This document shows positions 13,011-63,754 of a DNA stretch of 64,000 nucleotides, in pieces; position 1 is the first letter of the stretch; each line of letters starts with the position of its first letter. The notes under the pieces were generated by a model that was not told where the DNA came from, searched no databases, and saw only the letters and a program-made list of their open reading frames with translations. Position numbers and translations under genes: made by a program. Origin of the DNA: an uncultured Pelagibacteraceae bacterium (GTDB lineage Bacteria > Pseudomonadota > Alphaproteobacteria > Pelagibacterales > Pelagibacteraceae); contig CACLHW010000004.1 in the NCBI GenBank assembly GCA_902606835.1, positions 12,676 to 76,675 of the forward strand, read 5' to 3'.

Positions 13011-13023
13011 TTTTGGCTATATA

Positions 13024-14151: not shown

Positions 14152-14981
14152 ATAATTTAAAAATGTTTTGTTTAACTTTGGAACCCAGTCACTTAAAATT
14201 TATAAAAGAATTAAATTATATTCCAGTAGGGTTAGGTGAAAAAATTTTTCATAATAATGAAGGATGGTTTACAGATAAATTAGATAATAATATTTCAGAA
14301 AAAAATAAATATTATGGAGAGTATACTTTTCATTATTGGTTGTGGAAGAACTATATAGACTTAGATAATGTCGAAGATGGATGGTTTGGTTTTTGTCAAT
14401 ATAGAAAATTTTGGAGCATAAATGATGATAATCTTATACCCAAAACAATTAATGAGTTAAAGCCTTTAGCTTTAAAAAATATACCAGAAACATATGAGAA
14501 CTTTGATGCAGTACTAGGAAATCCATATTTTATTAATCAATTTAAGATAATGAAGTTTTTAAAAAAAGGTTTTAAAATAATAGTTAATAATCCTACTTAT
14601 TTATTTAATAAAAATAAAAGAAATTTAAAATTTCACTTCGACTTAATGCATGGAAATGGAAATCTCGATAAAGCAATTGATTTGCTTGACGATAATAATA
14701 AGAAGGATTTTAAAAATTATGTAAATTCCAATGTTTCATTTAATCCTCATAATATGTTTATATGTAAGTCAAAAATACTATTAAAAAGGTACTACTCAGA
14801 TCTTTTTCCTTGGTTACTAAAATGTGAAAAACTATTTGGTTTTAAGGATCTCAAAGGATTTGGTAAAATACGTATTTATACTTTCTTAGCAGAAAGATTT
14901 ATGCCCTATTGGTTTAATAAGAATGCAAGAGTAAAAACAATGCCAATAGTTTTTTATGATATAAGAAAAGATATAAAATAA
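14148..14981 (+). CDS. DUF4422-family putative glycosyltransferase (paralog 2)
   Basis: 277 aa with motifs NNISEKNKYYGEYTFHYWLWKN, GFCQYRKFW and FLAERFMPYWF. It has an ATGA overlap with the GT61 gene. Confidence 0.7.
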   Translation: MNNLKMFCLTLEPSHLKFIKELNYIPVGLGEKIFHNNEGWFTDKLDNNISEKNKYYGEYTFHYWLWKNYIDLDNVEDGWFGFCQYRKFWSINDDNLIPKTINELKPLALKNIPETYENFDAVLGNPYFINQFKIMKFLKKGFKIIVNNPTYLFNKNKRNLKFHFDLMHGNGNLDKAIDLLDDNNKKDFKNYVNSNVSFNPHNMFICKSKILLKRYYSDLFPWLLKCEKLFGFKDLKGFGKIRIYTFLAERFMPYWFNKNARVKTMPIVFYDIRKDIK

Positions 14982-15003
14982 AAGTAATTTTTTAATTTAA
15001 GAA

Positions 15004-16515
15004 CTAATTACCAACAACCCAGCTTTTTCTTAAATTTTTAAATTCTTCACTATTGCAAGATTCCCAAGCCTGATCTCTAATTTTTTCCAGTTCTTGTGGT
15101 GGGACTTGTGTATTTTTTAAGTTTGCTTTTGTCCATTGAAATCTATCAGGATTATAATCTAGAGGAAGATGTTTGTTTTTAATGCAATAATCAAATATGG
15201 GTGTACCTGGTACAGGCATTACTAAATAAAAATTTGAATGATCTAAGCCATAATCTTTCATTTTTCTCGCAAACTTTACTGTTTCTTCTATTTCCTTTCT
15301 TGACTCATCTGGAAAACCCAACATGTAATTTGTTCCAACATACATATTATATTTTTTAATTGTTTTAATTAATTGACCAGGATCAAATCTGTCTAAAGCA
15401 AGTTTATTTGAACACCATTTTTTTATGATTCGTGGACTTGCAGATTCAAAAGGTAATACTATTTCTTTAAATCCAACTTCAGAAAGCAACTCAATTACTT
15501 CTTCATCTGGAATCATCCATCCAGGTCTATTACTTTTTTTAACTAGATGTATCATATTGACACCATTAACATCCATTAAATCCAAGCCGAAACCTACAAT
15601 ACGTTTTAAAAGTCGAATAGCTCTTCTTTTCATTCCAAAAATTGAGTCATCCTCAATAAAAATTTGTTTTGCACCAATCTTTTCTTTTAATATTGTTAAC
15701 TCGTTTATAACTCTCTCATCTGATTTAAATCGGAATTTACCAATAGCTCCTGATTTAGAACCTTCAACTTCTTCAGCAATATGGCAGTAGGAACAAGAAA
15801 AAGGACATCCTCTTGAAGTCATCATAGAGGAGTATTTTAATTCCTCACCATGTTTTGCCTTCCCCCCATGCGGTCTTCCAATTTTCCAATATCTTTTGTT
15901 TGGCAACAATTCCCAAGCAGGTATTGGTAATTTATCTAGATCCATTAAAATTTCGCCAAAATTAGAATTGTCTACAATCTTTCCATTATTGTCTTTAAAA
16001 TATATTTTTCCAACCGAACTAAAATCTTTGCTATTCTTTCTCATAATTTTAGCTACTTGTTGAATAGCAATTTCAGATTCCGAAGTAAAAATTATATCAA
16101 AACCAGAATTAAAAAAAATAGAAGACCTGGATTTTGCATTAACACCACCTGAAAATAATAAAATATTAGGGAATTTTTTTTTAATTATTTTAGCACAATG
16201 TAAAACCTGAGTTTCTTGCTGTGAAAAAATTGAAGTAATTCCAACAGCATCGTAATTACTGGCAATTTCTAATATTCTATTATCGCTTACACCGGTTCTT
16301 ATCATTCCACTCGGAAGAACAGTGCTTTTGTAAAAAAAATTATTAATATTATCTTTATCATTACCTACGCACGCATCATAAATATAAGATTCGACACCTA
16401 TATTTTTTAAAGCTCCTGCCAAATAAGGATAGGCTAAAGATCCATTGGGCTTAACCATAGTTTTTGGCCAAGATTGTTCGGGCGGATATAAAAGCAATAT
16501 TTTAATTTGGCGCAT
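15004..16515 (-). CDS. B12-binding-domain radical SAM enzyme (class B-like)
   Basis: 503 aa. The N-terminal Rossmann-like B12-binding-type domain reads KILLLYPP...AVGITSIF...LLFSGGV. The radical SAM cluster motif is SRGCPFSCSYCHI. Confidence 0.8.
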   Translation of the reverse strand: MRQIKILLLYPPEQSWPKTMVKPNGSLAYPYLAGALKNIGVESYIYDACVGNDKDNINNFFYKSTVLPSGMIRTGVSDNRILEIASNYDAVGITSIFSQQETQVLHCAKIIKKKFPNILLFSGGVNAKSRSSIFFNSGFDIIFTSESEIAIQQVAKIMRKNSKDFSSVGKIYFKDNNGKIVDNSNFGEILMDLDKLPIPAWELLPNKRYWKIGRPHGGKAKHGEELKYSSMMTSRGCPFSCSYCHIAEEVEGSKSGAIGKFRFKSDERVINELTILKEKIGAKQIFIEDDSIFGMKRRAIRLLKRIVGFGLDLMDVNGVNMIHLVKKSNRPGWMIPDEEVIELLSEVGFKEIVLPFESASPRIIKKWCSNKLALDRFDPGQLIKTIKKYNMYVGTNYMLGFPDESRKEIEETVKFARKMKDYGLDHSNFYLVMPVPGTPIFDYCIKNKHLPLDYNPDRFQWTKANLKNTQVPPQELEKIRDQAWESCNSEEFKNLRKSWVVGN

Positions 16516-16548
16516 TTAGGGAGAGAATATACTTTAATATTCTGTATT

Positions 16549-17085
16549 TTAAAAACCTTTATAAGTTTTTTTAAAATTTAAAAAAGTTCCCCATTGAGTA
16601 TCTCTTTTAGCAAGAATTGGTTTGTTTGTTGGCCATTTAAGCTTTATGCTTTTATCGTTCCATAAAATTCCACCTTCATATTTAGGTTGGTAATAATTTG
16701 AAAGTTTATAATAAATTAAATTTAACTTTGAGAAACTGTAGTAAGCGTGTCCAAAACCTTCAGGTATATATAGAGATTTACAATTATCCTCGGACAAAAT
16801 AATGCTAAAACTTTTACCAAATGTTTTTGATTTTTTTCTAAGATCAATAACACAGTCTAAAATTTTTCCTCTTAAAACCGTTACATATTTTGCTTGTGGG
16901 TATTTAGAATTGAAATGAAAACCTCTTAAAACATTTTTTTTTGATAAAGTGGCATAATCAAAAATTAAATCATCCCATTTTATAATTTTTTTTCTGAAAG
17001 TTTCTCTTAAAAACCCTCTAGAGTCACCGATTTTTTTTTGAATTATAATTTTTAAACCTTTAATTTTTGTATCTATTACACGCAT
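16549..17085 (-). CDS. rfbC: dTDP-4-dehydrorhamnose 3,5-epimerase
   Basis: 178 aa cupin with DSRGFLRETF, LRGFHF and IPEGFGHAY motifs. Confidence 0.85.
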   Translation of the reverse strand: MRVIDTKIKGLKIIIQKKIGDSRGFLRETFRKKIIKWDDLIFDYATLSKKNVLRGFHFNSKYPQAKYVTVLRGKILDCVIDLRKKSKTFGKSFSIILSEDNCKSLYIPEGFGHAYYSFSKLNLIYYKLSNYYQPKYEGGILWNDKSIKLKWPTNKPILAKRDTQWGTFLNFKKTYKGF

Positions 17086-17095
17086 AAATTATAAA

Positions 17096-17812
17096 TTATC
17101 TTATTATTTTTTTGAGTTTTGACAAGTTCATATATGGATTTAAAGGAAAATTATATGTAGAATTTTTTTTAATAAATATTTTTTTAACCTTAGGATTGTA
17201 TTTTTTTGCAAAATCATAAACAGTTTTTGTTTGGCCCCCCACATTAATAATTCCTTTTTTATCCATAATTTTAATTAAAATTTTTACCAAATCTTCATGA
17301 AAAAGAAAATTTAACTTAACATTTGCAAAAGCCTTTTTATGAATGAACGGTTTTTCAGTCATGCTTATTCTAAGTATTAATGAGTTTTTATACATTTGTA
17401 CCGCACATTCCCCACCCATTTTTGACCATGCATAATTATTCCAGGGAAGAATAGGATCTTCTTCTCTATAATTACCTTTTTTTCCTGGGTAAACGTAACT
17501 TGTAGAAAAATAAATTAATTTTATATTCATTTCTGAACATATTTTTACTAGGTTTGATGTACCAATAATATTTAGGCTTATACTTTTACTTATATTTGTA
17601 TCATGCATAGCCATGGGTCTAGATAATGCAGCAAGATGTAATATAGACTGAGGCTTTTCTTTTTTTAGAAATTTCTTAATAGAATTTAAATTAGTAATAT
17701 TTAATGAGCTTTTACTTGGATAAATAAATTTGTACTTAGATTTCACTTTTTTAAGACTTTGAGCAAATCTTCCGCTACCACCAGTAACAACTATTTTATT
17801 TTTAATGAGCAT
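17096..17812 (-). CDS. rfbD: Short NAD-dependent sugar reductase/epimerase, probable dTDP-4-dehydrorhamnose reductase
   Basis: 238 aa with the VTGGSGRFA Rossmann motif and YAWSK catalytic YxxxK. It sits between rfbA and rfbC and is shorter than typical RmlD. Confidence 0.55.
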   Translation of the reverse strand: MLIKNKIVVTGGSGRFAQSLKKVKSKYKFIYPSKSSLNITNLNSIKKFLKKEKPQSILHLAALSRPMAMHDTNISKSISLNIIGTSNLVKICSEMNIKLIYFSTSYVYPGKKGNYREEDPILPWNNYAWSKMGGECAVQMYKNSLILRISMTEKPFIHKKAFANVKLNFLFHEDLVKILIKIMDKKGIINVGGQTKTVYDFAKKYNPKVKKIFIKKNSTYNFPLNPYMNLSKLKKIIR

Positions 17813-18694
17813 TTATTTTTGATCTTTTTTAATCAAGGTTGATAAGTATTGTGAGTAATTACATTTTCCGTAAAATTTTATTGCATTTACTATATTTTTC
17901 TTATTAATCCATTTATTATTAAAAGCTATTTCTTCTAAGCATGCTATTTTAAGACCCTGTCTATTTTCTAAAGCCGATACGAAGGCTGATGTATTGTTAA
18001 AATCTTCAATAGAACCTGTATCCAGCCAAGCACCTCCACGACCAATAAAATTGGCTGAAAGTTTTTTTCTTTTTTTGTATTTATTTAATAAATCAACAAT
18101 TTCAACTTCTTTTCGTTTAGAAGGTTTAAGATTTTGACTATATTCAACAACTTTATTATCAAAGAAATAAAGTCCTGTTATCGCTAAATTGGAAAAATAC
18201 TTTTTTGGTTTTTCAACAATTTTTAATATTTTATTTTTTTTATTTATTTTTGCAATTCCATAAAGAGAGGGATTTTTTACAGGATGTAATAAAACATTAG
18301 CACCAGATTTTAGTTTAATACACTCTTTTAATCTATTTGTAAGACTTTGCCCGTAGAAAAAATTATCCCCTAAGATTAAGGCAACATTTTCTTTTCCAAT
18401 AAATTTTTTCCCTACAACAAAAGCATCGGGCAGACCCTTTGGATAAGATTGTTCAATATATGAAATTTTAATTCCCAAATTACTACCGTTTGGTAAAATT
18501 TTTTTAAACTGACTTAATTGTCCTTTATTAACTATAATTAATATATCTTTTATTCCTGATAACATTAAAATAGAGAGAGGGTAAAAAATTAAAGGTTTAT
18601 CGTAAATTGGTAGCAGCTGTTTATTTACAGCTTTTGTTATAGGACTCATCCTTGTACCAAAGCCTCCAGCTAAAATAATTCCTTTTTTAATCAT
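17813..18694 (-). CDS. rfbA: Glucose-1-phosphate thymidylyltransferase
   Basis: 293 aa with GIILAGGFGTRMSPIT, LGDNFFYG and the C-terminal RGGAWLDTG. Confidence 0.9.
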   Translation of the reverse strand: MIKKGIILAGGFGTRMSPITKAVNKQLLPIYDKPLIFYPLSILMLSGIKDILIIVNKGQLSQFKKILPNGSNLGIKISYIEQSYPKGLPDAFVVGKKFIGKENVALILGDNFFYGQSLTNRLKECIKLKSGANVLLHPVKNPSLYGIAKINKKNKILKIVEKPKKYFSNLAITGLYFFDNKVVEYSQNLKPSKRKEVEIVDLLNKYKKRKKLSANFIGRGGAWLDTGSIEDFNNTSAFVSALENRQGLKIACLEEIAFNNKWINKKNIVNAIKFYGKCNYSQYLSTLIKKDQK

Positions 18695-19707
18695 GTTTTT
18701 AATCCAAGTCTATTGACATAAAGTTTTTTAGAGACACTTTTAAAAAAATTTTTATTATTTAGATACCAATCAAAAGTTTGAACTAAACCTTTTTCTATTG
18801 ATATTTTCGCTTTCCAACCTAACTTTTTTTTAATTTTATTATTATTCAATGCATACCTGATATCATGGCCAGGTCTATCTTTTACAAATTTTATTTTTGT
18901 ATTACTATCAATATTTAAATATTTATTTTTTGCTATTTTTAGTAATTTTTGAGCAATATCTACGTTTTTAAGATTTATTCCTGATCCAATGTTATAATTT
19001 TCCCCAACTTTACCTTTTATAAAAATTAATAAAAGAGCCTCACAATGGTCTAGAACATGCATCCATTCTCTGGAATTTTTTCCTCTTCCATATATTGGCA
19101 ACGGTTTATTATTTATAATATTAAAAATTAATTTTGGTATTAATTTTTCAGGAAATTGATTGGGACCATAATTATTACAACAGTTAGAAATAACTGCCTG
19201 AATTTTATAAGTTCTTATATAAGCTTTAATTAGGTGATCTGCACTGGCTTTTGAAGATGAATAGGGAGAGCTTGGGTTATATGGATATTTTTCACTAGAT
19301 CTTCCTTTTAATATATCACCATAAACTTCATCAGTAGATATATGAATAAGTTTAATTTTTTTCTTATACGCCAGAATGGCTTCTAGTAAATTATAAGTTC
19401 CCAAAATATTACTATGGATAAAATTGTATGGTGTATCAATTGAACGATCTACGTGAGTTTCTGCAGCTAAATTAAAAATACCGCTTGGTTTATATTTTTT
19501 TAGAATTTGAGTAATTTTTTTTTTATTATTTAAATCAACTTTTATAAAAAGATAATTTTTATTTTTTTTTAAATCAGCAGTATTATAAGGATTTGCAGAA
19601 TATTTTAATGAATCTATATTAATTACGAAATATCTTTTACTTAATAAAAGTTTTACAAGATTACTTCCTATAAACCCAGAACCACCGGTAACTATTACCT
19701 TTTTCAT
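18691..19707 (-). CDS. rfbB: dTDP-glucose 4,6-dehydratase
   Basis: 338 aa with VTGGSGFIGSN, HISTDEVYGD and YSSSKA (YxxxK). It has a 4-nt overlap with rfbA. Confidence 0.9.
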   Translation of the reverse strand: MKKVIVTGGSGFIGSNLVKLLLSKRYFVINIDSLKYSANPYNTADLKKNKNYLFIKVDLNNKKKITQILKKYKPSGIFNLAAETHVDRSIDTPYNFIHSNILGTYNLLEAILAYKKKIKLIHISTDEVYGDILKGRSSEKYPYNPSSPYSSSKASADHLIKAYIRTYKIQAVISNCCNNYGPNQFPEKLIPKLIFNIINNKPLPIYGRGKNSREWMHVLDHCEALLLIFIKGKVGENYNIGSGINLKNVDIAQKLLKIAKNKYLNIDSNTKIKFVKDRPGHDIRYALNNNKIKKKLGWKAKISIEKGLVQTFDWYLNNKNFFKSVSKKLYVNRLGLKT

Positions 19708-19777
19708 ATTTTGCTTTTTACATTAGTAAAAACTGTTAGTATAGTTGTTATTCTAAAAAGTTAGTATTCATTATACT

Positions 19778-20656
19778 ATGTCAATATCTGGGCAAAATTT
19801 ATCAATTGTAATAGTTACTTTAAAAAGTGAAAAAGTAATACATGACTGCATCAAATCGATTAATCTAAATTTACCAATAATTGTTGTCGAACAATCTAAA
19901 AACAGAAATTTTAAAGATGAACTTGAAAATAAGTATAAAAATTTGAAATGCATTCTTTCAAATTCAAATTTGGGTATGGGCTCTGGTAATAATATTGGTA
20001 TAAAAGCCGCTGATACTGACTATGTGATGATACTAAACCCTGACACAGTTTTAAAAAGCGATACTATTGAAGAACTTATATTTGCAGCAAAATCTTTACC
20101 AAATTTTGAAATTTTAGCACCTTTGGAAGAAGATTTTTCTAATTATGAAATTCATTCAAATAAAGAAAAGATAGATTTAAATTTAGATCAATCACCGTTC
20201 CAAGTCGATTATGTCGATGGATTTGCAATGTTATTAAATAAAAAGAAACTTAAAGACGAAGTGTATTTTGATAAAAATTTTTTTATGTATTTAGAAAATA
20301 ACGACCTATGTTTAAGAACAAGAAAAAATGGGGGCAAAATTTTTATTGCACCTAAATCGAGAATAAAACATTTAGCAGCAAAAGCCGTTGATGAAAAATT
20401 TAGTATTGAAGTTGAATATTCTAGAAACTGGCATTGGATTTGGTCAAAATTTTATTTTAATAAAAAACATTATGGTTATATTAAAGCACTAAAAGAATGT
20501 TTGCCGACCTATTTATCTTCAATGATAAAATTTATATTTTATTTTTTAATTAATAATAAAATGAAAAAAAAAATATATTTTAATAGAGCATCAGGTTTTT
20601 ATAATGCTTTTATCGGAAGATCTTCTTGGTATAGACCAACTATTCCTACGGACTAA
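19778..20656 (+). CDS. Family 2 glycosyltransferase
   Basis: 292 aa with the LSIVIVTLKSE start, NLGMGSGNNIG and MILNPDTVL (DxD-type region), typical of GT2 rhamnosyltransferase-like proteins. Confidence 0.75.
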   Translation: MSISGQNLSIVIVTLKSEKVIHDCIKSINLNLPIIVVEQSKNRNFKDELENKYKNLKCILSNSNLGMGSGNNIGIKAADTDYVMILNPDTVLKSDTIEELIFAAKSLPNFEILAPLEEDFSNYEIHSNKEKIDLNLDQSPFQVDYVDGFAMLLNKKKLKDEVYFDKNFFMYLENNDLCLRTRKNGGKIFIAPKSRIKHLAAKAVDEKFSIEVEYSRNWHWIWSKFYFNKKHYGYIKALKECLPTYLSSMIKFIFYFLINNKMKKKIYFNRASGFYNAFIGRSSWYRPTIPTD

Positions 20657-21192
20657 TGACCTGGAAAATCCATTATGCTAAAAGTTTTATAACCTTTGCT
20701 TTCAAGAGATTTTGTGCCTCCTAAATCAAAAAGATTAATAACAAAAATAAATCCAGAAACTTTTCCACCTGATTTTTGAACCAACTTTGCAGCTGCCTCA
20801 GCTGTACCACCTGTAGCTATTAAATCGTCAACAATAATTACCTTTTCATTAGTTTTGATAGAATCTTTGTGAACTTCTAATGTAGCTTTGCCATATTCTA
20901 ATTCAAAGTCTACAGAATATCTTTCAGCTGGCAATTTATTTTTTTTTCTAAACAAAGCATAAGGTTTATTTAAATTATATGCTAATGGAGAAGCAAAGAT
21001 AAAACCTCTAGATTCTATCGCAGCTATTTTATCAAAATTTAATTTAGTTAATGTTTTTGCCATTTCATCTATACAATTTTTGAATGCAACCTCATCTTTA
21101 ATTAAAGTAGTTATATCTCTAAATAAAATACCTTTTTTAGGATAATCAGGAATTGAACGTATATATTTCTTTAAATCCATTTTTTGCTTCAA
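20653..21192 (-). CDS. apt: Adenine phosphoribosyltransferase
   Basis: 179 aa with IPDYPKKGILFRDIT and the PRPP loop VIIVDDLIATGGTAEAA. Confidence 0.9.
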   Translation of the reverse strand: MKQKMDLKKYIRSIPDYPKKGILFRDITTLIKDEVAFKNCIDEMAKTLTKLNFDKIAAIESRGFIFASPLAYNLNKPYALFRKKNKLPAERYSVDFELEYGKATLEVHKDSIKTNEKVIIVDDLIATGGTAEAAAKLVQKSGGKVSGFIFVINLFDLGGTKSLESKGYKTFSIMDFPGH

Positions 21193-21228
21193 AGTTAATT
21201 AAAAAGATCATATTAATTATAATAAATT

Positions 21229-23721: not shown

Positions 23722-25782
23722 TTATCTTAACGACGCAGCTATATTTCCCCCATCAACAGTAAGAACAGCTCCAGTAGTTTTTTTAGAAGTAGCTAAATGA
23801 AAAAAAGCTTTAGCAACATCTTCAGCTTTTACTTCATTTAATAATAAATTTCCTTTCATATAGTCACTAGTACTTACCGCTCTTGCTTTTGCTCTAGTTT
23901 TAATCATTTTGTCTGTCATTAATCCGCTTCTTATTCTGTCAGCATTTACTCCATTAGATCTAATTCCATAAGATCCATAATCAACAGCGTATTGTTTGCA
24001 TAAACTTAGCAAGGCTGATTTAGGTAAACCATAAGGACCGAAATTTTTTCCGGGATTTACAGATTGTTTTGAAATATTAAAAAGAAGACAACCATTAGTA
24101 TTTTGTTTTTTCATTATTTTAACAGCTTCAGAAGCACAATTTTGATGTGAGAAGAAATTAATTTCAAAACTTTTTCTTAATAGCTCGTCACTTACTTCAC
24201 CTATAGATCCACCAGGAGCTGTACCTGCGTTTGAAATTAAAATATCAATTCCACCAAATTTTTCACAGATTTGATTAAAAGCTTTTTTCACACTTTTTTT
24301 ACTTGTTACATCACAATGTATACAAAGATCTTTAATTTTTGATTGCACTTCTTTCAAACGTTCTAAATTATTATCAAGTAGAATAACTTCAGCTCCATAA
24401 CTTTTAAACATTTTATAAGTTTCGAAACCTATAGTTCCAGTACTTCCTGTAACCACAACAACATTGCCTTCAAGAAGTTTTTTCTTCTTTTTTATTTTTG
24501 CCTGTTCTAAAGACCAATATTCAACATCAAACAGGTCTTTTTCTGGAATAAATTTGTAACTAGATGTTTCTTCAACGGAAGAAATTACTCTAGCATTAGT
24601 TTCAGTTAAATCTCCAGCAATTTTTGCTGCATTTAAATCTTTGCCAACACTAAACATGCCAACATTTTGTACTAAAACAACTCTTGGAGAGGTGTCTAGC
24701 ATCACTTTTTTTTCTTTAGTTTTTCTATGATTTACATTGAAATAATGAATATATTTTTTACGATAATTTTCAAAAGCTTTTTTTGCTATTTTTCTAAATT
24801 CTTCTACTGAAGAATTTTTTTTAGGAGTAATTATTAATGGAAATGGTTTTACTCTAATTACGTGATCAGGTGTAGCGGTGCCTTTTGATGAATAGGCTCT
24901 AACATTTTTTCCATTTATGAAATATTTTAGATGTTTATTAAGTCTATAATTAATAACAAATTTTTGATCTTTATTTTCAGATAAAAGACCTCGTATTATT
25001 GGGGCCACTTCATGAGGGTTAAATTTTGGAGAAAATTTTTTAATTTGTTTAATTTTTTTACTTTTTAATTTTTTAATAGTATTTTCAGCTTTTGAAACAT
25101 ACTTTATCATCAAATCGTAAGCTTCTTTGCAATCATTAGCAAAAGTAAAGATTCCATGGTTCATTAATATTAAGCAATTTATTTTTGGATTTTTAGAATA
25201 AACCTCATTGATTTTTTTCGCTAACATGAAACCCGGCATTACATATGGTACTATACTAACTTTATTTCCAAATATTTTTTTGCATAAATTTAATCCACCG
25301 GGTCTATTTGTTATATTAAGCACAGCATCAGCATGAGTATGGTCTACATATTTAAAAGGCAAGAAGGCATGCAAAAATGTTTCAACTGAAGGATTTGGTG
25401 ATTTTATATCAATCAGATTTCTTTTTTGATATGCAACCATATCTTCATCAGATAAATATTTTTTATTTTTTAGAGCTAGCAAAGGGTCTAATTTAACTGC
25501 AGGAAGACCAGGTGGCTCAATATCTGCCATGTCCCAACCACTTCCCTTTACACATAAAACTCTATATTTTTTTCCATCAATATCTTTAATTGTAGTTTTG
25601 ACAGAAGTATTTCCTCCACCATGTAATACTAACTCTTTGTTTCTACCTAGTAGCCGCGTTGTATAAACTCTAAGTGCTAAATCAGCAGAAAATCCAAGCT
25701 TTTCGTACTTTTTTATATATTTTTTTGCAATTTTTTTTGACCAATTATTTTTCAAAATTAAACTCCATAAACTTATTAACAA
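23722..25782 (-). CDS. Bifunctional class II aldolase/adducin-domain + short-chain dehydrogenase fusion (rhamnulose-1-phosphate aldolase/alcohol dehydrogenase-like)
   Basis: 686 aa. The N-terminal half has the class II aldolase pattern (LHGGGNTSVK ... DHTHADAVL ... MNHGIFTF). The C-terminal half is an SDR (VVVTGSTGTIGFE, NAGTAP, YGLPKSA). The start is TTG in the track and may lie up to 9 codons downstream. Confidence 0.8.
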   Translation of the reverse strand: MLISLWSLILKNNWSKKIAKKYIKKYEKLGFSADLALRVYTTRLLGRNKELVLHGGGNTSVKTTIKDIDGKKYRVLCVKGSGWDMADIEPPGLPAVKLDPLLALKNKKYLSDEDMVAYQKRNLIDIKSPNPSVETFLHAFLPFKYVDHTHADAVLNITNRPGGLNLCKKIFGNKVSIVPYVMPGFMLAKKINEVYSKNPKINCLILMNHGIFTFANDCKEAYDLMIKYVSKAENTIKKLKSKKIKQIKKFSPKFNPHEVAPIIRGLLSENKDQKFVINYRLNKHLKYFINGKNVRAYSSKGTATPDHVIRVKPFPLIITPKKNSSVEEFRKIAKKAFENYRKKYIHYFNVNHRKTKEKKVMLDTSPRVVLVQNVGMFSVGKDLNAAKIAGDLTETNARVISSVEETSSYKFIPEKDLFDVEYWSLEQAKIKKKKKLLEGNVVVVTGSTGTIGFETYKMFKSYGAEVILLDNNLERLKEVQSKIKDLCIHCDVTSKKSVKKAFNQICEKFGGIDILISNAGTAPGGSIGEVSDELLRKSFEINFFSHQNCASEAVKIMKKQNTNGCLLFNISKQSVNPGKNFGPYGLPKSALLSLCKQYAVDYGSYGIRSNGVNADRIRSGLMTDKMIKTRAKARAVSTSDYMKGNLLLNEVKAEDVAKAFFHLATSKKTTGAVLTVDGGNIAASLR

Positions 25783-25844: not shown

Positions 25845-26888
25845 ATGAAAAAAGTTGGAGAACACGTTACGATAGATTTTTTAGGTGTTAAACAGGATTA
25901 TTCTCCTGAATTTTACAATAAAGTTATCTATAAAATTGCCAAAAAAACCAGAGTAGAAGTTATTAATATTGCTGAAAAGGTGTTTAAACCTCAAGGATAT
26001 ACGTGCGTTGCACTTTTGGCAGAAAGCCACATGAGTTTTCACACTTTTCCAGAAAAAGGAATAATTAGTTTTGATTTTTTCACTTGTGCAAAAATTTCAC
26101 CAACAGCAGCGCTAGATATATTAAAAAAAGAGATTAAGCATGAAAGAGCTGTAGTAAGAAATTTTGATAGAAGTAATAAAGGTGTATATGAAGATATATA
26201 TAGTACACCAGGCCATCAAAAATATTATGTTGTTAATGATGTTTTAGAAAATTTTATATCAAAAGTAGGGCAGCATATTGAAATAATGAAATTAGAAGAA
26301 TTTGGAAATGCTTTATTTATAGATAGTGAATTGCAAGTCGCAGAGAAAGATGAAAAGAAATATAGTGGACAATTTGTTAATTCTGCACTTAGTTTATCAA
26401 AAGAAAATTCAAATGCAGCTATAATTGGTGGTGGAGATGGTGGTGTAGCAAGGGAATGTTTGTCAAAAGGGTTTGATTTAATTGATTGGTTTGAGCTAGA
26501 TCCCGAAGTGGTTAAAGTTTGTCAAAAACATCTCCCTAAAATCTGTGGAGAAGTTAAAGCTAATAATAATGTAAAAACATGTTGGGGAGATGCTTTCGAG
26601 AGTATTAAAAAAGTGAAAGACTCAAAATATGATAAAATTTTTGTAGATCTTAATGACGATCAGTTTTGCATAGATCTTGCAGCAAGAAATATGAAAAGTT
26701 TAAAAAGAATTCTAAAACCTGGTGGAGTTATAACTGCTCAAGTCGGAACTGTATCTAAAAAACCAAGACAGGTTAACAACTGGTTAAAAGTTCTTGACCA
26801 GAATTTTGGAAATGTAAAATTAGACGAAGCTTTAATACCAAGCTTTGATTGTCGTTGGAATTTTGCGTCTTCTATAATGAAATCCTAA
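25845..26888 (+). CDS. Fusion protein: pyruvoyl-dependent S-adenosylmethionine decarboxylase (N-terminal) + spermidine synthase-type aminopropyltransferase (C-terminal)
   Basis: 347 aa. Residues 1 to about 110 match small bacterial AdoMetDC, including the self-cleavage site LLAE/SHMSFHTFPE (Ser61 codon at 26025-26027). Residues from about 130 to the end carry IIGGGDGGVAREC, ELDPEVV and DKIFVDLND of spermidine synthases. Confidence 0.75.
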   Translation: MKKVGEHVTIDFLGVKQDYSPEFYNKVIYKIAKKTRVEVINIAEKVFKPQGYTCVALLAESHMSFHTFPEKGIISFDFFTCAKISPTAALDILKKEIKHERAVVRNFDRSNKGVYEDIYSTPGHQKYYVVNDVLENFISKVGQHIEIMKLEEFGNALFIDSELQVAEKDEKKYSGQFVNSALSLSKENSNAAIIGGGDGGVARECLSKGFDLIDWFELDPEVVKVCQKHLPKICGEVKANNNVKTCWGDAFESIKKVKDSKYDKIFVDLNDDQFCIDLAARNMKSLKRILKPGGVITAQVGTVSKKPRQVNNWLKVLDQNFGNVKLDEALIPSFDCRWNFASSIMKS

Positions 26889-38949: not shown

Positions 38950-40875
38950 ATGAATAAAAAACTGTCATTGGCTATAGAGAAAGCTGTCGAAAAAATTAGC
39001 CCACAGGATGATTTCTTAATTGAAAAAATAGGTAAAAAACCAGATCTTTTTTCACTAACTTCCCAGACGGAATTGTTTCAGAATGAAAAAGGTATAACTA
39101 TAAAAATTGACAGATCCAAAGACAACAAATTAACTGATTTTGGTAAAGCAACTTTAAGCGATAGATATTTAGGACAGAACGAGTCTTTCCAAGATTTGTT
39201 TGCTCGTGTCGCAAGCACATATGCTGATAATAATTTACATGCTCAAAGAATTTATAACTATATAAGTGATTTGTGGTTCATGCCTGCAACACCTATTTTA
39301 TCCAATGGTGGAACAGAAAGAGGATTGCCAATTTCATGCTTTTTGAATGAGGCGGGAGATAGTTTAGATGGAATTTTAGATTTGTGGAGTGAAAATGTTT
39401 GGTTAGCTGCAAAAGGAGGAGGAATTGGAAGTTATTGGGGAAATTTAAGATCTATTGGAGAAAAAATTGGAAGAGTTGGAAAAACCTCAGGAATAATTCC
39501 TTTTATTAAAGTAATGGATTCTCTAACTATGGCTATAAGTCAAGGATCTCTTCGTAGAGGTTCTGCTGCATGCTACCTTCCGATCGATCATCCAGAAATA
39601 GAAGAATTTATAGAGATGCGTAGGCCAACTGGTGGAGATCCCAATAGAAGATCATTAAATTTACATCATGGAGTTTTAGTTAGTGATGCATTTATGAGAG
39701 CAGTTGAAACAAATTCTGAATGGGCTCTCAAAAGTCCAAAAGATGGTGTTGTACAATCAACAGTTTCTGCGAGAAATTTATGGATAAGACTGTTAACAGC
39801 AAGAGTTGAAACAGGGGAACCATATATAATTTTTGTTGATACTGTAAATAGACTTATTCCCCAGCACCATAAATTAGCTGGACTTAATGTAAAAACATCT
39901 AATCTTTGCAGTGAGATAACATTACCTACAGGTATTGATAAAGATGGGAATGACCGAACAGCGGTATGCTGTTTGTCTTCTTTAAATTTAGAAACTTACA
40001 ACGAGTGGAAAGATCAACCAAATTTTATTGAAGATGTAATGAGATTTTTAGATAATGTTCTGGCAGATTTTATTAACAGAGCACCTGACTCATTTAAAGA
40101 TGCAAAATATTCAGCTATGAGGGAAAGAAGTGTAGGTTTAGGAGTTATGGGATTTCATTCCTTTTTACAAAAAAATTCTATACCGTTAGAATCTGTAATG
40201 AGCAAAGTTTGGAATGATAAAATTTTCAGACATATACAAACAAATGTGGATCAAGCTTCAAAAAAATTGGCTGAAGAGAGAGGACCTTGTCCGGATGCAG
40301 AAGAATATGGATTTGAGGAAAGATTTTCTAATAAAACAGCTATTGCTCCAACCGCTTCTATCTCTATAATTTGCGGAGGAGCGTCACCAGGAGTCGAACC
40401 AATAGCAGCAAATAGTTATACACATAAAACTCTTTCAGGTTCTTACAATGTAAGAAATAGATATCTAAAAGAAATTTTAGAAAAACACGGCAAAAATAAT
40501 GATGAGACTTGGTCTACAATTACTACTAACCAAGGTTCAGTTTCTCATTTAAATTTTTTAACAAAACATGAAAAAGAAGTGTTCAAAACTGCTTTTGAAT
40601 TAGATCAAAAATGGATAATTGAACTTGGAGCAGGAAGAACTCCTTACGTATCTCAAGCGCAGTCTATTAATATTTTCTTACCTGCAGATGTTCATAAAAA
40701 AGAATTACATCAGATACATTTTCAAGCATGGAAAAAAGGTTTAAAGAGTCTGTATTATTGTAGATCAAAATCAATACAGAGAGCAGAAAATATAAATAAT
40801 GAATTATCAACAACTGTGACAAAAAAAGAATCGAAAGAAGAACCAAATTACGAAGAATGTCTGTCATGTCAGTAG
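38950..40875 (+). CDS. nrdA: Class I ribonucleoside-diphosphate reductase alpha subunit, without an N-terminal ATP-cone
   Basis: Motifs are PISCFL, NLCSEI (catalytic Cys/Glu) and the C-terminal redox pair CLSCQ. I prefer the ATG at 38950 (MNKKLSL...); the track start is TTG at 38914. There is no KRDG-type ATP-cone motif in the N-terminus. Confidence 0.9.
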   Translation: MNKKLSLAIEKAVEKISPQDDFLIEKIGKKPDLFSLTSQTELFQNEKGITIKIDRSKDNKLTDFGKATLSDRYLGQNESFQDLFARVASTYADNNLHAQRIYNYISDLWFMPATPILSNGGTERGLPISCFLNEAGDSLDGILDLWSENVWLAAKGGGIGSYWGNLRSIGEKIGRVGKTSGIIPFIKVMDSLTMAISQGSLRRGSAACYLPIDHPEIEEFIEMRRPTGGDPNRRSLNLHHGVLVSDAFMRAVETNSEWALKSPKDGVVQSTVSARNLWIRLLTARVETGEPYIIFVDTVNRLIPQHHKLAGLNVKTSNLCSEITLPTGIDKDGNDRTAVCCLSSLNLETYNEWKDQPNFIEDVMRFLDNVLADFINRAPDSFKDAKYSAMRERSVGLGVMGFHSFLQKNSIPLESVMSKVWNDKIFRHIQTNVDQASKKLAEERGPCPDAEEYGFEERFSNKTAIAPTASISIICGGASPGVEPIAANSYTHKTLSGSYNVRNRYLKEILEKHGKNNDETWSTITTNQGSVSHLNFLTKHEKEVFKTAFELDQKWIIELGAGRTPYVSQAQSINIFLPADVHKKELHQIHFQAWKKGLKSLYYCRSKSIQRAENINNELSTTVTKKESKEEPNYEECLSCQ

Positions 40876-41807
40876 TTAAATTAGAAAAAAAGGGCGATAA
40901 AGTAGAAAAGTCAGGGTTACTAATCGGCAATCCAGTTTACAAACCATTTAGATACCCATGGTGTTACGACGCTTGGCTAACCCAACAAAGAATACATTGG
41001 TTACCTGAAGAAGTACCTTTAGGAGATGATGTTAGAGATTGGCAAAAAAATCTAAGCCAACCTGAAAAAAATTTACTTACACAAATTTTTAGATTTTTCA
41101 CACAAGCTGATGTTGAAGTTAGTAATTGTTACATTAGGCATTATATGAATGTTTTCAAACCTACAGAAGTTCTAATGATGATGTCATCATTTGCCTCGAT
41201 GGAGACTGTTCATATTGCAGCTTACTCACATTTACTAGATACGATTGGAATGCCAGAGGCTGAGTATTCAGCTTTTTTAAAATATAAAGAAATGAAAGAC
41301 AAATATGATTACATGCAGGGTTTTGATGTAAAATCAAATCATGATATTGCAAAAACAATAGCAGTTTTTAGTGGTTTTACAGAAGGCCTCCAATTATTTG
41401 CCAGTTTTGCAATTTTATTAAATTTTCCTAGGCAAAATAAAATGAAAGGTATGGGCCAAATTGTTACTTGGTCAGTTAGAGATGAAACTTTACATTGCAA
41501 TTCAATGATAAAGTTATTCAGAACTTTTATTGACGAAAATCCAAAAATTTGGACTGATAAATTAAAAAAAGAAATTTATGAAGCTTGTAGAACAATAATT
41601 TCACATGAAGATGCTTTTATTAACTTAGCATTTGAAATGGGACCGATTAATGGACTTACATCAGATCAAGTAAAACAATACATTCGATGGATTGGAAATA
41701 GAAGATTAGTTCAACTTGGACTTGAGCCAATATATCAAATTGATAAAAATCCTTTAACTTGGTTAGACACAATGTTGAATGCTGTTGAACACATGAATTT
41801 CTTCTAA
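40857..41807 (+). CDS. nrdB: Class I ribonucleotide reductase beta subunit, as annotated truncated by an in-frame TAA before the conserved C-terminal tail
   Basis: Metal and radical motifs are FFTQADVEV, SMETVHIAAYSHLL (ExxH...Y), FTEGLQLFASF and VRDETLH. The ORF stops after ...EHMNFF. The same frame stays open for 20 more codons (41808-41867). Confidence 0.85.
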   Translation: MSVMSVVKLEKKGDKVEKSGLLIGNPVYKPFRYPWCYDAWLTQQRIHWLPEEVPLGDDVRDWQKNLSQPEKNLLTQIFRFFTQADVEVSNCYIRHYMNVFKPTEVLMMMSSFASMETVHIAAYSHLLDTIGMPEAEYSAFLKYKEMKDKYDYMQGFDVKSNHDIAKTIAVFSGFTEGLQLFASFAILLNFPRQNKMKGMGQIVTWSVRDETLHCNSMIKLFRTFIDENPKIWTDKLKKEIYEACRTIISHEDAFINLAFEMGPINGLTSDQVKQYIRWIGNRRLVQLGLEPIYQIDKNPLTWLDTMLNAVEHMNFF

Positions 41808-41929
41808 GGTAGAGCAACAGAATATTCTAAAGCTTCAACTAAAGGTACTTGGGCGGAAGCTTTTTCATAATTTATTCACTTCCTTAAACATATATCTGCT
41901 AGTAAACTAATGCATTGAAAGGAGATGTT

Positions 41930-42253
41930 ATGGCAACATTTTATGCATTGGGTAATTACACTACTCAAGGATTTCAGGGTTTTATCAAAGATCCAAAATC
42001 AGATAGAGCAAAAGCAGCACAAGCTGCTGCGCAAGCTGTTGGAGCTAAATTAGTTTCTTATACAGGTTTAAGAGGACCTTATGATTTTTTAGCTGTATTC
42101 GAAGGTACTTTTGCACAAGGTGCAGGTATTAAGATGGCAACAGAAGCAAGCGGCGCTTTATGTAATATTGCAATCTGTGAAGCAATAGATATCAATGAAA
42201 TAGCAGCTAATGCTGCAAAAATTGCAGGGGCATACAAAGGTCCAGGAAAATAA
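41930..42253 (+). CDS. GYD-domain protein
   Basis: I prefer the ATG at 41930 (MATFYALGNYTTQG...), which is preceded by the SD AAAGGAG at 41918-41924. The family pattern ...TGLRGPYDFLAVFE is present. Confidence 0.65.
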   Translation: MATFYALGNYTTQGFQGFIKDPKSDRAKAAQAAAQAVGAKLVSYTGLRGPYDFLAVFEGTFAQGAGIKMATEASGALCNIAICEAIDINEIAANAAKIAGAYKGPGK

Positions 42254-45553: not shown

Positions 45554-45624
45554 TTAATTAAGTATTATTAAGAAATATTTTGTGAGTTATTACAAAGTTT
45601 ATATTAATGTAAAGAGAAATCTTG

Positions 45625-46263
45625 ATGACATCAACAAACAAAAAGAAAATAGCCTTAATAGAAAAGCATGATCAAGCAAAGTTACGAAATCATGCGATGA
45701 AAATAGGAGTAACTTTAAAATCTCCAGAAACGGTGTTTTTATCTAAAGATACCAGATATGGAAAAAATGTAGTTATAAACCCTTATGTTGTAATTGGAAA
45801 AAAAACAAAAATAGGAAACAACGTTGAAATTTTACCTTTTACTCATATTGAAAATGCAATTTTAGAAGATAATGTAAATGTTGGTCCTTTTTCTAGAGTT
45901 CGACCAGGATCTTATTTATCCAAAGGGTCTAGAGTTGGAAATTTTGTAGAAATTAAGAAAAGCAAAATAGGAAAGAATACAAAAATTAATCATTTATCTT
46001 ATATTGGAGATTCAAATGTTGGTAAAAATGTAAATATTGGAGCTGGAACCATTACTTGCAATTATGATGGTAAAAAGAAAAATAAAACTAAAATAATGGA
46101 TGGGGCCTTTATAGGTTCAAATACAGCTTTAGTAGCTCCTATAAAAGTTGGAAAAAACTCAGTAGTTGGTGCAGGTTCAACATTAACTAGTAATGTTAAA
46201 AATAAGTCGCTTTCGTTAACAAGATCAAAGCAGGTTGAAATAAAAAACTATAAAAGAAAGTAA
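45625..46263 (+). CDS. Stand-alone left-handed beta-helix acetyltransferase equivalent to the C-terminal (GlcN-1-P N-acetyltransferase) domain of GlmU
   Basis: About 212 aa. It aligns by eye to E. coli GlmU from roughly residue 235 to the end (GPFSRVRPGS..., GNFVEIKKS, HLSYIGDS, NIGAGTITCNYDG, VAP...VGAGST). No uridyltransferase domain is present, and the upstream gene is on the other strand. Confidence 0.75.
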   Translation: MTSTNKKKIALIEKHDQAKLRNHAMKIGVTLKSPETVFLSKDTRYGKNVVINPYVVIGKKTKIGNNVEILPFTHIENAILEDNVNVGPFSRVRPGSYLSKGSRVGNFVEIKKSKIGKNTKINHLSYIGDSNVGKNVNIGAGTITCNYDGKKKNKTKIMDGAFIGSNTALVAPIKVGKNSVVGAGSTLTSNVKNKSLSLTRSKQVEIKNYKRK

Positions 46264-59795: not shown

Positions 59796-61088
59796 CTATT
59801 TAAATATTCTTTTATATATGACGTTTATTTTTTTGGTATGGTAATTAAGATCAAACATTTTTATTAATTCTTTATTAGAAATTTTTTTATTAATCAACGA
59901 GTCTTTTGCTAAAGTATCGTACAAAGATGTATTTTTTGTCCAAGCATTTTGAGCACTTTTTTGAACCAGTGCATAAGCTTTTTCCCTTGAAAGTCCGTGT
60001 TTTGTCAATTCTATCATTACTCTTTGCGAAAAAATTAATCCATTAGTAATATTAAGATTCTTTAACATTTTTTTTGGATAAACATTCATATTTTTTAAAA
60101 TATTTTTTAGCCTATTAAGAGCAAAATCTAACGTAATAGTAGAATCGGGACCAATATTTCGCTCAACGCTAGAATGAGAAATATCTCTTTCGTGCCATAA
60201 AGAAATATTTTCAAGAGCAGGTATAACATAGCTTCGAACCATTCTTGATAGACCTGTTAAGTTTTCACTTAATATTGGGTTTCTTTTGTGAGGCATAGCC
60301 GAAGATCCCTTTTGTTTTTTATCAAAAAATTCTTCAACTTCTTGTAATTCAGTTTTTTGTAGATTTCTTATTTCAATTGCAACCCTTTCAACCGACCCAG
60401 CAATTATAGCTAAGACAGAAAAATAATAAGCATGTCTATCCCTAGGTATAATTTGAGTAGATATTGGTTCAATTTTTAAATTAAGTTTTTTTGCTACATA
60501 TTCTTCAATTTTTGGATCAACATTAGCAAAGGTGCCAACAGCACCTGAAATTGCACATGTAGATACTTCATTAATTGCATTTTCTAGTCTTTTTTTATTT
60601 CTTTTAAACTCTTCATAAAAACTAGCTAATTTTAAACCAAATGTTGTTGGTTCAGCATGGATACCATGGCTTCTACCTATGCAAATTGTATTTTTATACT
60701 TTAGAGATTTGTTTTTTAATACTTTTAATATTTCATTAATATCTTCAATAAGTATTTTTCCAGATTTGATTAATTGAATATTAAAACTTGTGTCTATAAC
60801 ATCTGAAGAAGTCATACCTTTGTGCAAATATTTACCTACTGGACCAACTTTTTCAGTAATAGAAGTTAAAAAGGCAATCACATCATGGTGAACTTTATTT
60901 TCAATCTTATGAATTCTATCAATATTTATTTTAGCTTTTTTTTTAACTTTAGAAGCAACTCCACGCGGTATAAGTCCAAGTTTTTCCATAGCTTGGGCAG
61001 CAGCTATTTCAATATCTAGCCAAATTTTATACTTATTTTCTTCATCCCAGATTTCTTTTATTTCTTTTCTTGAGTATCTTTCAATCAT
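59796..61088 (-). CDS. purB: Adenylosuccinate lyase
   Basis: 430 aa with the [10 protein letters not shown] start and the fumarate-lyase signature [11 protein letters not shown]. Confidence 0.9.
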
Positions 61089-61861
61089 AATTGATAAGGC
61101 GGCTGTTCATAATTTTTTTTTGACTTTGTAAATATTTCAAATCCAGTGTCTGTTACACCAATAGTATGTTCGAATTGTGCCGATAAAGATTTATCTTTTG
61201 TTACAGCTGTCCATCCATCTTTAAGTAATTTGGTATTATAAACACCTTCATTTATCATAGGTTCAATTGTAAAAATCATTCCAGTTTTTAATTTTATTCC
61301 TTCGCCTTTATTTCCATAATGTAGAACATTTGGTGGTTCATGAAATATTTTTCCTATGCCGTGCCCACAGAAATCTCGAACTACAGAAAAACCTTTTTCT
61401 TCAACATAAGATTGAATAGCATTACCTATATCACCTAAGTGTGTACCATCTTTGACTATTGAAATAGCTTTGATCATAGAATTGTAGGCTGTAGAAATTA
61501 AATTTTTACTTTTTACCGAAACATCACCCACAAAAAACATTCTGCTTGTATCGCCATGCCATCCATTAACGATTGATGTAACATCAATATTAATTATATC
61601 ACCATCTTTTAAATATTTTTCGGTGGGAATACCATGACAAACTACATGGTTTACAGAAGTGCAGCAAGATTTGGGAAAACCTCTATAGTAAAGTGGAGCA
61701 GAGTACCCTCCATTGTCTCTTATAAACTCATAGCAAATTTTATCTATTTTTCCAGTTGTGACACCTGGTTTAACATAGGAAGTAATTTCATCTAAAGCGT
61801 CAGCAGCTAAACTGCCTGCAATTTTAGTTTTTTCAAAAGATTCTTTATAACTATTTTTCAT
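61085..61861 (-). CDS. map: Type I methionine aminopeptidase
   Basis: 258 aa with the metal-ligand contexts VCHGIP, DVTSIVNGWHGDTS, FCGHGIG and FTIEPM. Confidence 0.9.
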   Translation of the reverse strand: MKNSYKESFEKTKIAGSLAADALDEITSYVKPGVTTGKIDKICYEFIRDNGGYSAPLYYRGFPKSCCTSVNHVVCHGIPTEKYLKDGDIINIDVTSIVNGWHGDTSRMFFVGDVSVKSKNLISTAYNSMIKAISIVKDGTHLGDIGNAIQSYVEEKGFSVVRDFCGHGIGKIFHEPPNVLHYGNKGEGIKLKTGMIFTIEPMINEGVYNTKLLKDGWTAVTKDKSLSAQFEHTIGVTDTGFEIFTKSKKNYEQPPYQL

Positions 61862-62546
61862 AATTAATTTGTTTATTAAGTTTTATCTCTTCATTGTTCA
61901 ATTGACAATCATAACAAAGAATTTTTACATCATTTTTTAAGGCATCGTTAAAAGCATTTTTATACTCTTCATCTATATCTTTAGCAATTTTAAAAGTTTC
62001 ACAATCTTCTCTTTGAATTAAGTATAATATATAACTTTCAAATCCTGCATTTTTAGCTTTAATCAACTCACGTAAATGTTTTGTGCCACGAGAAGTTATT
62101 GCATCAGGAAACTCTGCAACTTTTTTATTTCTCATTAAAGTTACATTTTTTACTTCGAGAAAGCATTTTTCTTTGTTATTTGAAATATAAAAATCAAATC
62201 TAGTATTATTTGAAAATTTAGTTTCGGGTTTTATTTTATTATATTTAATTAAATTTTTGATTTTTTTGTTATTTAAAGCTTCTAAAACAATTTTATTAGC
62301 AAGATGTGTATTTACTCCTACAGGTTTTTTATCAACGTAAATTATTTCTAATGTATATTTTAATTTTCTTTTTGGATTATCAGATTGCGAAAAGCAAACA
62401 TCATTACCTTTATCTATTAGTCCTGACATTGATCCGGAATTGGGGCAATGAGCTGTAATAGTTTTGTTTTTATATTTTATATCAGCAAAAAATCTTTTAT
62501 ATCTTTTAATCAAGGTTCCTTGTAATAATTTCTCTTTAAACTTCAT
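61851..62546 (-). CDS. sfsA: SfsA-family (sugar fermentation stimulation) nuclease-fold protein
   Basis: 231 aa with the LIKRYKRFFADI N-terminus and EVKNVTL...FPDAITSRGTKHLREL. Confidence 0.8.
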   Translation of the reverse strand: MKFKEKLLQGTLIKRYKRFFADIKYKNKTITAHCPNSGSMSGLIDKGNDVCFSQSDNPKRKLKYTLEIIYVDKKPVGVNTHLANKIVLEALNNKKIKNLIKYNKIKPETKFSNNTRFDFYISNNKEKCFLEVKNVTLMRNKKVAEFPDAITSRGTKHLRELIKAKNAGFESYILYLIQREDCETFKIAKDIDEEYKNAFNDALKNDVKILCYDCQLNNEEIKLNKQINYEK

Positions 62547-62568
62547 TTTATATAAATATTATTAGAAT

Positions 62569-63330
62569 ATGAAAAAAGCTAACAAAAAAATGAGTGCCGC
62601 AATTATCATTATTGGCAATGAAATTTTATCAGGTAGAACTCAAGATACAAATGTAGTGTTAATAACTAAATGGTTAAATAGACTAGGTGTAAAACTTAAA
62701 GAAGTAAGAATAATACCTGATATAGAAAAATCGATAGTGCGAACAGTAAACAGGTTGAGAAAAAAATTTAACTATGTTTTTACTACTGGAGGAATAGGAC
62801 CTACACATGATGATATTACATCAAGATCAATAGCTAAAGCTTTTAGACAATCATACGGATATCATAAAGAAGCTTATAAGATTTTAGAAAATTATTATGG
62901 AAAAGATAATTTTAATCAGGGAAGAAAAAAGATGGCCAAAATTCCTAAAAAAGCTAAATTGATTTTTAATCCCTCAAGTGCTGCACCAGGGTTTATTGTT
63001 AATAATGTTTTTTGCCTACCCGGAGTTCCTTCAATACTTGAATCAATGTTAATAGGTTTAGAAGGCAAAATTGTTAAAGGAAAAAAAATTATAAGCAAAT
63101 CTATTAATATAAGAACAGTAGAAAGTGAAATTGCTCGTGAACTGGAGTTAGTTCAAAATAATTATAAAAAAGATGTAGAAATTGGTAGTTATCCTTTTTT
63201 TAAACAAGGAAAAATAGGGGTTTCTATTGTAATAAGATCAATTAAAAAAAATAAAATTGACGATTGTTTTAAAAAAATTGTAAGTTTTTTAAAAAAGAAA
63301 AAAATTAAAATTATTTATAAAAAGGAATAA
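62569..63330 (+). CDS. CinA-N-terminal-like molybdopterin-binding (MoCF_BD) domain protein
   Basis: 253 aa with AAIIIIGNEILSGRTQDTN and TTGGIGPTHDDIT. Confidence 0.7.
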   Translation: MKKANKKMSAAIIIIGNEILSGRTQDTNVVLITKWLNRLGVKLKEVRIIPDIEKSIVRTVNRLRKKFNYVFTTGGIGPTHDDITSRSIAKAFRQSYGYHKEAYKILENYYGKDNFNQGRKKMAKIPKKAKLIFNPSSAAPGFIVNNVFCLPGVPSILESMLIGLEGKIVKGKKIISKSINIRTVESEIARELELVQNNYKKDVEIGSYPFFKQGKIGVSIVIRSIKKNKIDDCFKKIVSFLKKKKIKIIYKKE

Positions 63331-63331
63331 C

Positions 63332-63754
63332 ATGCAGTATTATTTTGCTTATGGCAGCAACCTTCATCACGCACAAATGAAAAAAAGATGTCCAAAATGT
63401 CGTTATATTAAAAAACACATTCTTAATAATTACCAATTAACTTTTAGAAGCAAATATGGAGCCTGTGATATAGAAAAAAAAATGGGCAAGAAAGTTTATG
63501 GTGCATTGTATTTAATTTCTAAGTGTGCAGAAAAAAGACTGGATGTTTATGAGGAATTTCCGACATTATACAAGAAAATTTATTTTAAGTATAAAAATAA
63601 TAAAGTAATGACATACACTATGGTAAGAAAAACGAAATTAGTTCCCCCAACCCAAAGATACTTGAATATTGTAAAACAAGGTTATAAAGACTGCAAACTT
63701 AATATTAAAAGTTTACAAACTGCTTTGCTGCCTGTAGCACATCTTCAACGGTAA
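63332..63754 (+). CDS. Gamma-glutamylcyclotransferase/AIG2-like family protein
   Basis: 140 aa with the YFAYGSNL N-terminal motif and a ...LDVYEEFP... segment. Confidence 0.6.
   Translation: MQYYFAYGSNLHHAQMKKRCPKCRYIKKHILNNYQLTFRSKYGACDIEKKMGKKVYGALYLISKCAEKRLDVYEEFPTLYKKIYFKYKNNKVMTYTMVRKTKLVPPTQRYLNIVKQGYKDCKLNIKSLQTALLPVAHLQR

Follow-up and report, generated by a model that had tools for sequence, protein, structure and literature searches.

The class I ribonucleotide reductase (RNR) beta-subunit gene nrdB, located in a 64,000-nucleotide stretch (the window) of DNA from a Pelagibacteraceae (SAR11) bacterium, is closed by an in-frame TAA at a position where its relatives carry a glutamate codon, and the reading frame continues directly behind this stop. 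Does the stop represent an error in the deposited sequence, a recent nonsense mutation, or a codon that is functionally read through or suppressed, the three options that had been offered by the initial annotation of the locus? The features that bear on this question are the following.

38950..40875, + strand: nrdA, class I RNR alpha subunit, 641 amino acids from ATG 38950 (the start in the public record), with PF02867 (E 2e-117) and PF00317
40857..41807, + strand: nrdB open reading frame (ORF), start ATG 40857, a C-terminally cut beta subunit of 316 amino acids; its first 19 nt overlap nrdA
41805..41807, + strand: premature TAA at codon 317, in place of an invariant Glu codon (GAA/GAG), with G>T at 41805 and G as the fourth base
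41808..41867, + strand: stranded C-terminal tail of 20 codons, GRATEYSKASTKGTWAEAFS, with Y323 and the alpha-docking C-terminus; aligns to the C-terminus of 9dws
41868..41870, + strand: natural, ancestral nrdB stop, TAA with T as the next base; relatives stop at this same position, after ...AFS

Direct reading of the sequence gives ...LNAVEHMNFF, TAA and then, in the zero frame, GGT AGA GCA ACA GAA TAT and so forth, which translates as GRATEYSKASTKGTWAEAFS; the stop-spanning context in the window is AATTTCTTCTAAGGTAGA, and the longer context around the internal stop is AATTTCTTCTAAGGTAGAGCA. The stop at 41805-41807 and the 20 in-frame codons up to the TAA at 41868-41870, as given by the initial annotation, proved exact in both coordinates and sequence on re-reading. 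An open extension of at least 20 codons past the stop is found in 33% of the window ORFs of at least 80 amino acids and is hence unremarkable per se. The homology of the nrdB extension to R2 tails, on the other hand, lies far beyond chance. The closest solved R2 is PDB 9dws, followed by the Chlamydia trachomatis R2 (1syy/2ani), and the read-through NrdB aligned end to end with 9dws (E 1e-97), up to the last residue of the latter. The 9dws tail, NFFENRVTEYEVAGLTGSWDEAYS, stands against NFFxGRATEYSKASTKGTWAEAFS in the window, such that NFF-E-N-R-V-T-E-Y...W.EAYS of 9dws lies opposite NFF-x-G-R-A-T-E-Y...WAEAFS, and the Chlamydia R2 tail, ...NFFETRVIEYQHAAS, also aligns with the read-through protein. 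Because the read-through product aligns end to end with a solved R2, the stranded 20 codons represent the genuine class I RNR beta C-terminal tail, including the pathway tyrosine Y323, the equivalent of the radical-transfer residue Y356 of E. coli. The claim that an intact R-x-T-E-Y tail with the radical-transfer tyrosine persists behind the stop is thus borne out, both by the match to the 9dws C-terminus and by agreement with the nearest relatives at 20/20 residues.

The part of NrdB upstream of the stop looks like that of an ordinary class I R2. It matched PF00268 (Ribonuc_red_sm, ferritin-like; Pfam) over profile positions 3-281 of 281 with an E value of 2.4e-76, and the core is complete, with the metal ligands D85, E116, H119, E176, E210 and H213 and the radical-site residue Y123. 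These ligands, whose identities we presume from established knowledge of the family, and Y123 are in register with E89/E120/H123/E193/E227/H230/F127 of the Chlamydia R2 in the alignment. The window NrdB accordingly shares with class I R2 proteins the full core, the six ligands, the radical-site tyrosine and an adjoining, overlapping nrdA and, if the stop is read through, also the NFF-E-x-R-x-T-E-Y motif and the W..EA.S C-terminus. It differs in that codon 317 is TAA rather than GAA and that the deposited product is 21 residues short. In a class I beta subunit, the tail tyrosine is joined to the core in one polypeptide; in the record, TAA 41805-41807 intervenes between the two, and they would be joined only if the stop were either erroneous or bypassed by readthrough.

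The partner gene shows no comparable defect. The mechanically called nrdA ORF begins at TTG 38914, upstream of the public-record start, and the C-terminus of NrdA carries a CxxC motif (ECLSCQ), while the Pfam scan gave no match to an ATP-cone in this protein. Family scans with Pfam and NCBIfam were run on about 60 ORFs, reaching 61.1 kb and covering most of the sequence to that point, with four ORFs at 61085..63754 left out. Among the ORFs scanned, NrdA and NrdB were the only RNR proteins and no second RNR was found, in agreement with the earlier description of this enzyme as the sole RNR of the window. The window has a GC content of 29%, and the scanned ORFs showed ordinary domain coverage, with the nrdB stop being the only lesion found.

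Further evidence comes from the codon that relatives carry at the same site. In 80 species-representative Pelagibacteraceae genomes the codon after NFF is GAA in 65 and GAG in 15, with stops in none, and among the 120 metagenome contigs listed, out of at least 120 matches, it is GAA in 101 and GAG in 19. The stop is thus conserved in 0/200 of the related DNA loci listed. At the protein level, Glu was found at the site in 109/109 of the C-termini parsed among the best 120 protein matches, and 8 of the 11 unparsed ones visibly read NFFE or NYYE. Given that the codon of the relatives is GAA or GAG, the TAA of the window lies one G>T step from an ancestral GAA. Two earlier statements, namely that the stop is a single G-to-T difference from GAA and that NFF-E is a conserved motif, therefore stand, with GAA or GAG in 200/200 of the related DNA loci listed and Glu at the site throughout the relatives' proteins and DNA loci parsed. 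Nor do the relatives end at NFF with unconserved sequence over the next 60 nt, an outcome for which the initial annotation had allowed; they have the Glu and a conserved tail. In the 80 genomes, this tail is kept as protein and is variable synonymously (GGT/GGA/GGC, AGA/CGT etc.), and because the protein stays constant while synonymous sites vary, the pattern indicates that the tail is under purifying selection in the relatives.

The stop was also sought on a wider scale. A wobble-degenerate pattern with T-R-R (TAA/TAG/TGA/TGG) at the nrdB site, which the window itself satisfies, had no match in 241 million metagenome records and none in the viral contig collection, and a control scan with the same pattern and a free codon gave at least 120 matches, those listed all being GAA or GAG. 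Out of about 15 billion proteins, the exact 316-amino-acid product has a single entry. It comes from one NCBI contig (86,510 bp) on which the other proteins of the window, including the exact 641-amino-acid NrdA, are also found, and the source is therefore a draft assembly. The lineage of the window is hardly sampled, because the nearest nrdB shares about 85% nucleotide identity with that of the window and both NrdA and PrpC of the window form singleton 90% clusters, and the absence of the TAA elsewhere is thus uninformative on the window's own population. A relative of the N-terminal XdhC part, L201 (771 bp), shows 92% identity and therefore belongs to a different population.

The age of the lesion can be approached through the private changes on the window's branch, which were counted against the four closest relatives (L001-L004). 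Besides the nonsense change, nrdB carries 29 synonymous and 13 missense private changes and no indels. The tail holds two synonymous private changes and no missense change; random tail changes are synonymous in 24% of cases, and the probability of two out of two is about 0.06 under neutrality. The 20 tail residues are all identical to those of L001-L004, from which they differ in 4-6 codons, all synonymously. Among the columns that are at least 98% conserved in 138 relatives, NrdB departs at two only, the stop and A173G, and NrdA departs at 0/399. These counts suggest that nrdB has been under selection until essentially the present and that the lesion would be evolutionarily instantaneous. An established pseudogene, while sharing with the window nrdB a premature stop in the coding sequence, differs from it by many lesions and relaxed selection, whereas the window nrdB has a single lesion, a low missense-to-synonymous ratio, an undecayed tail and an intact partner; neither relaxed selection nor multiple lesions were found here. 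As a separate observation, the A173G change (GCT>GGT, 41373..41375, + strand) is private, lies three residues before the ligand E176 and falls in a column that is invariant in the 138 relatives; it is mild and might reflect either another base error or a genuine change specific to the lineage.

What a beta subunit ending at NFF would be able to do can be judged from work on the E. coli enzyme. At the beta C-terminus, both E350 and Y356 are essential for turnover, and the tail tyrosine is essential and conserved in all characterised class I RNRs (PMC8463856). Substitution of E350 disrupts radical transfer, and this residue positions the tail (PMC11482829). Glu317, as encoded by the relatives, and Tyr323 are six residues apart, the same spacing as between E350 and Y356 of E. 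coli, and from this spacing and the invariance of the residue we infer that Glu317 is equivalent to E350, the phmmer match to E. coli R2 spanning residues 175-307 only. The lost Glu317 is thus probably essential in itself. Since tail residues of the E350/Y356 type are essential for turnover, the 316-amino-acid NrdB should be inactive. C-terminally truncated E. coli R2 and the E350 and Y356 tail mutants offer a close parallel: the predicted 316-amino-acid product corresponds to a beta subunit without the flexible tail, which holds the alpha-binding determinants and the pathway tyrosine. The E. coli proteins differ in having been obtained by engineering or proteolysis. When UAA is decoded by near-cognate readthrough, the residue inserted is Gln, Lys or Tyr rather than Glu. 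An enzyme with one of these residues at codon 317 would probably still be defective, because the lost Glu is apparently required, and this weakens the reading of the stop as a site of functional readthrough.

Recoding found no support in the direct tests either. TAA ends 55/82 of the window ORFs of at least 80 amino acids and, because it serves as the terminator of so many, this argues against a reassignment of TAA in the window's genome. The base after TAA is A or T in 48/55 of the TAA-ending ORFs and G in 4/55, with nrdB itself and spurious ORFs counted among them. The internal nrdB stop is TAA-G and the natural one, 63 nt further on, is TAA-T; UAA-G is not a known leaky context. UAA is in general the least leaky stop, and both release factors recognise it. 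The predicted RNA structure at 41790-41935 (-23.8 kcal/mol) does not stand out from shuffled sequence (mean -24.5 kcal/mol, z=0.20), and no hairpin or terminator was found on the + strand near the nrdB stop. The window encodes tRNA-Met as its only tRNA, so no suppressor tRNA lies within the 64 kb, and the literature search returned no paper linking nrdB to readthrough. Two further routes to a tailed protein were rejected. Frameshifting or hopping at TTC TTC TAA G does not apply, as the tail lies in frame zero and neither a slippery pattern nor a landing site is present; independent translation of the tail was dismissed since it contains no in-frame ATG, GTG or TTG. Known readthrough systems (Qbeta A1 at UGA, Sec/Pyl recoding, suppressor tRNAs) share with the window nrdB an in-frame stop and a required in-frame extension. 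In these cases, however, the stop is conserved in relatives, is usually UGA or UAG, and often comes with a defined context, RNA element or dedicated tRNA, whereas the nrdB stop of the window is UAA and occurs in one record, and neither a structure nor a tRNA was detected for it.

Taken together, the nrdB TAA is a one-off GAA>TAA (G>T) change private to this record, and we consider it likely that its origin is technical, namely an amplification, sequencing or assembly error in a draft genome. For example, a damaged G on one template molecule might have been read as T; the real nrdB of the organism would then have GAA and encode a normal 337-amino-acid beta subunit, whose intact tail (Glu317...Tyr323...WAEAFS) would dock on NrdA and relay the radical, as it does in every class I RNR. 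A stop arises from about 6% of random single-base changes in nrdAB, and among thousands of marine draft genomes the occasional nonsense artefact is therefore expected. A single lesion in 64 kb fits an error-prone assembly but does not indicate one, and as a counterpoint to the artefact there is no other obvious error in the window. The same accuracy of the remaining window speaks for a real nonsense mutation of very recent date, in the sampled cell, in a clone or in a minor variant, by which nrdB would be knocked out or nearly so; we regard this as rather unlikely, though worth serious consideration. The cell might then be non-viable or dying, survive on traces of readthrough, or be rescued by a second nrdB or another RNR class outside the window. 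The deposited sequence does carry the TAA, the undecayed tail fits a very young event, and extra R2 paralogues exist in the SAR11 clade, some members of which carry a further R2-like gene within an accessory island (PMC12816887). Against this, a beta subunit without its tail is expected to be inactive (PMC8463856), and selection should remove the allele immediately, before it could become the consensus of a metagenome-assembled genome (MAG) or a culture; that a living population would carry such a lethal allele at consensus level is thus implausible. In addition, the allele was seen nowhere else in the genomes, metagenomes and protein records compared, and the scanned part of the window has no second RNR. 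Per-base error in draft assemblies typically exceeds de novo mutation per site and generation by orders of magnitude. It is from such base rates, and not from data, that the weighting of artefact against mutation derives, and we infer the artefactual origin on that footing.

A functional recoding, with the TAA fixed in the lineage and usefully decoded by near-cognate readthrough or a suppressor tRNA, maybe throttling RNR, seems very improbable to us. It would fit the perfect, in-frame preservation of the tail and the synonymous nature of both window-private tail changes, although the neutral probability of the latter is only about 0.06, and the sparse sampling of the lineage leaves room for fixation. 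However, the stop is absent from every relative, it is of the least leaky kind and read by both release factors, and its TAA-G context, rare as it is in the window (4/55), is no known leaky one. The RNA downstream is unstructured (z=0.20), tRNA-Met is the sole tRNA in the window, and global suppression would be costly with TAA terminating 55/82 ORFs. Moreover, insertion of Gln, Lys or Tyr cannot supply the invariant, E350-spaced Glu (PMC11482829, PMC8463856), and a link between nrdB and readthrough did not emerge from the literature search. We could further speculate that UAA is fixed at codon 317 and that a low but sufficient level of decoding yields few tailed beta chains, such that dNTP synthesis in this slow-growing oligotroph would be throttled at the level of translation, but we attach hardly any weight to this idea. 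Practically negligible, in our judgement, is the chance that the 316-amino-acid NrdB is the intended functional product, with the tail dispensable or supplied separately. Nothing beyond the ORF itself speaks for it, and it is at odds with the purifying selection that keeps the tail in all 200 related loci listed, with the missing in-frame start codon in the tail, with the essential role of the tail tyrosine in all characterised class I RNRs (PMC8463856), and with the co-encoded NrdA, a normal class I alpha that would require the tail. From the three options of the initial annotation, error and recent nonsense mutation thus emerge as strongly favoured, while readthrough is unsupported, there being no conserved stop, a poor context, no structure and no suppressor tRNA in the window. 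As such, the nrdB stop represents no novel type of feature, being either unreal or an ordinary nonsense mutation.

Should the stop prove to be artefactual or a one-off mutation, the practical consequence is that the public NrdB is annotated 21 residues short, or flagged as a pseudogene. The short annotation could mislead metabolic reconstructions, such that this SAR11 would be reported without a functional aerobic RNR, and the case illustrates the known hazard of single-base nonsense calls in draft single-cell and metagenome genomes. If the stop were real and fixed, it would represent a rare bacterial UAA readthrough in an essential enzyme, but no evidence points there.

Several minor observations were made around the locus and elsewhere in the window. 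The 90% cluster that holds the window NrdB (P0243/P0010) lists members that JGI calls phosphomannomutase (P0245-P0247), and nrdA of the window is itself closely preceded by a PGM/PMM gene; P0001, the protein match of NrdB with the highest score, is a 448-amino-acid oddity. The phosphomannomutase labels and P0001 are probably database labelling or gene-call artefacts. Past the natural nrdB stop, the spacer at 41871..41930 on the + strand (translated FIHFLKYISVSKLI...) is nearly identical in L001-L004, and may hold conserved regulatory sequence for the GYD-domain gene at 41930..42253. Farther downstream, at 45622..46263 on the + strand and directly upstream of glmS, a 213-amino-acid ORF has a hexapeptide/LbH (GlmU C-terminal-like acetyltransferase) domain only, without a nucleotidyltransferase domain, and the gap upstream of it is only 69 nt.

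On the - strand, a molybdenum hydroxylase cluster at 4348..9613 comprises small, large and medium subunits, a MocA-like cytidylyltransferase and a split XdhC; its best matches are glyceraldehyde dehydrogenase and aerobic CO dehydrogenase models, all below curated cut-offs. The XdhC/CoxF-family maturation factor of this cluster (4945..5955, - strand) consists of same-frame N-terminal (5626..5955, 109 amino acids) and C-terminal (4945..5625, 226 amino acids) parts with a TAA-ATG junction. It was considered as a second in-frame TAA and a hint of suppression and was rejected, as the N-terminal part is separate, with 109-110 amino acids, in 120/120 of the best relatives; the split is thus the standard arrangement in SAR11, conserved as two genes, rather than a gene that has been broken. 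A sugar/LPS island (~13000..21200) with rmlA/B/C/D-like genes and glycosyltransferases contains a radical SAM protein with a B12-binding domain (15004..16515, - strand), and four ORFs neighbouring this gene (11262..14981) had no match in NCBIfam. Lastly, two domain fusions were found, an AdoMet decarboxylase-spermidine synthase of 347 amino acids (25845..26888, + strand) and a class II aldolase-short-chain dehydrogenase of 686 amino acids (23722..25782, - strand).
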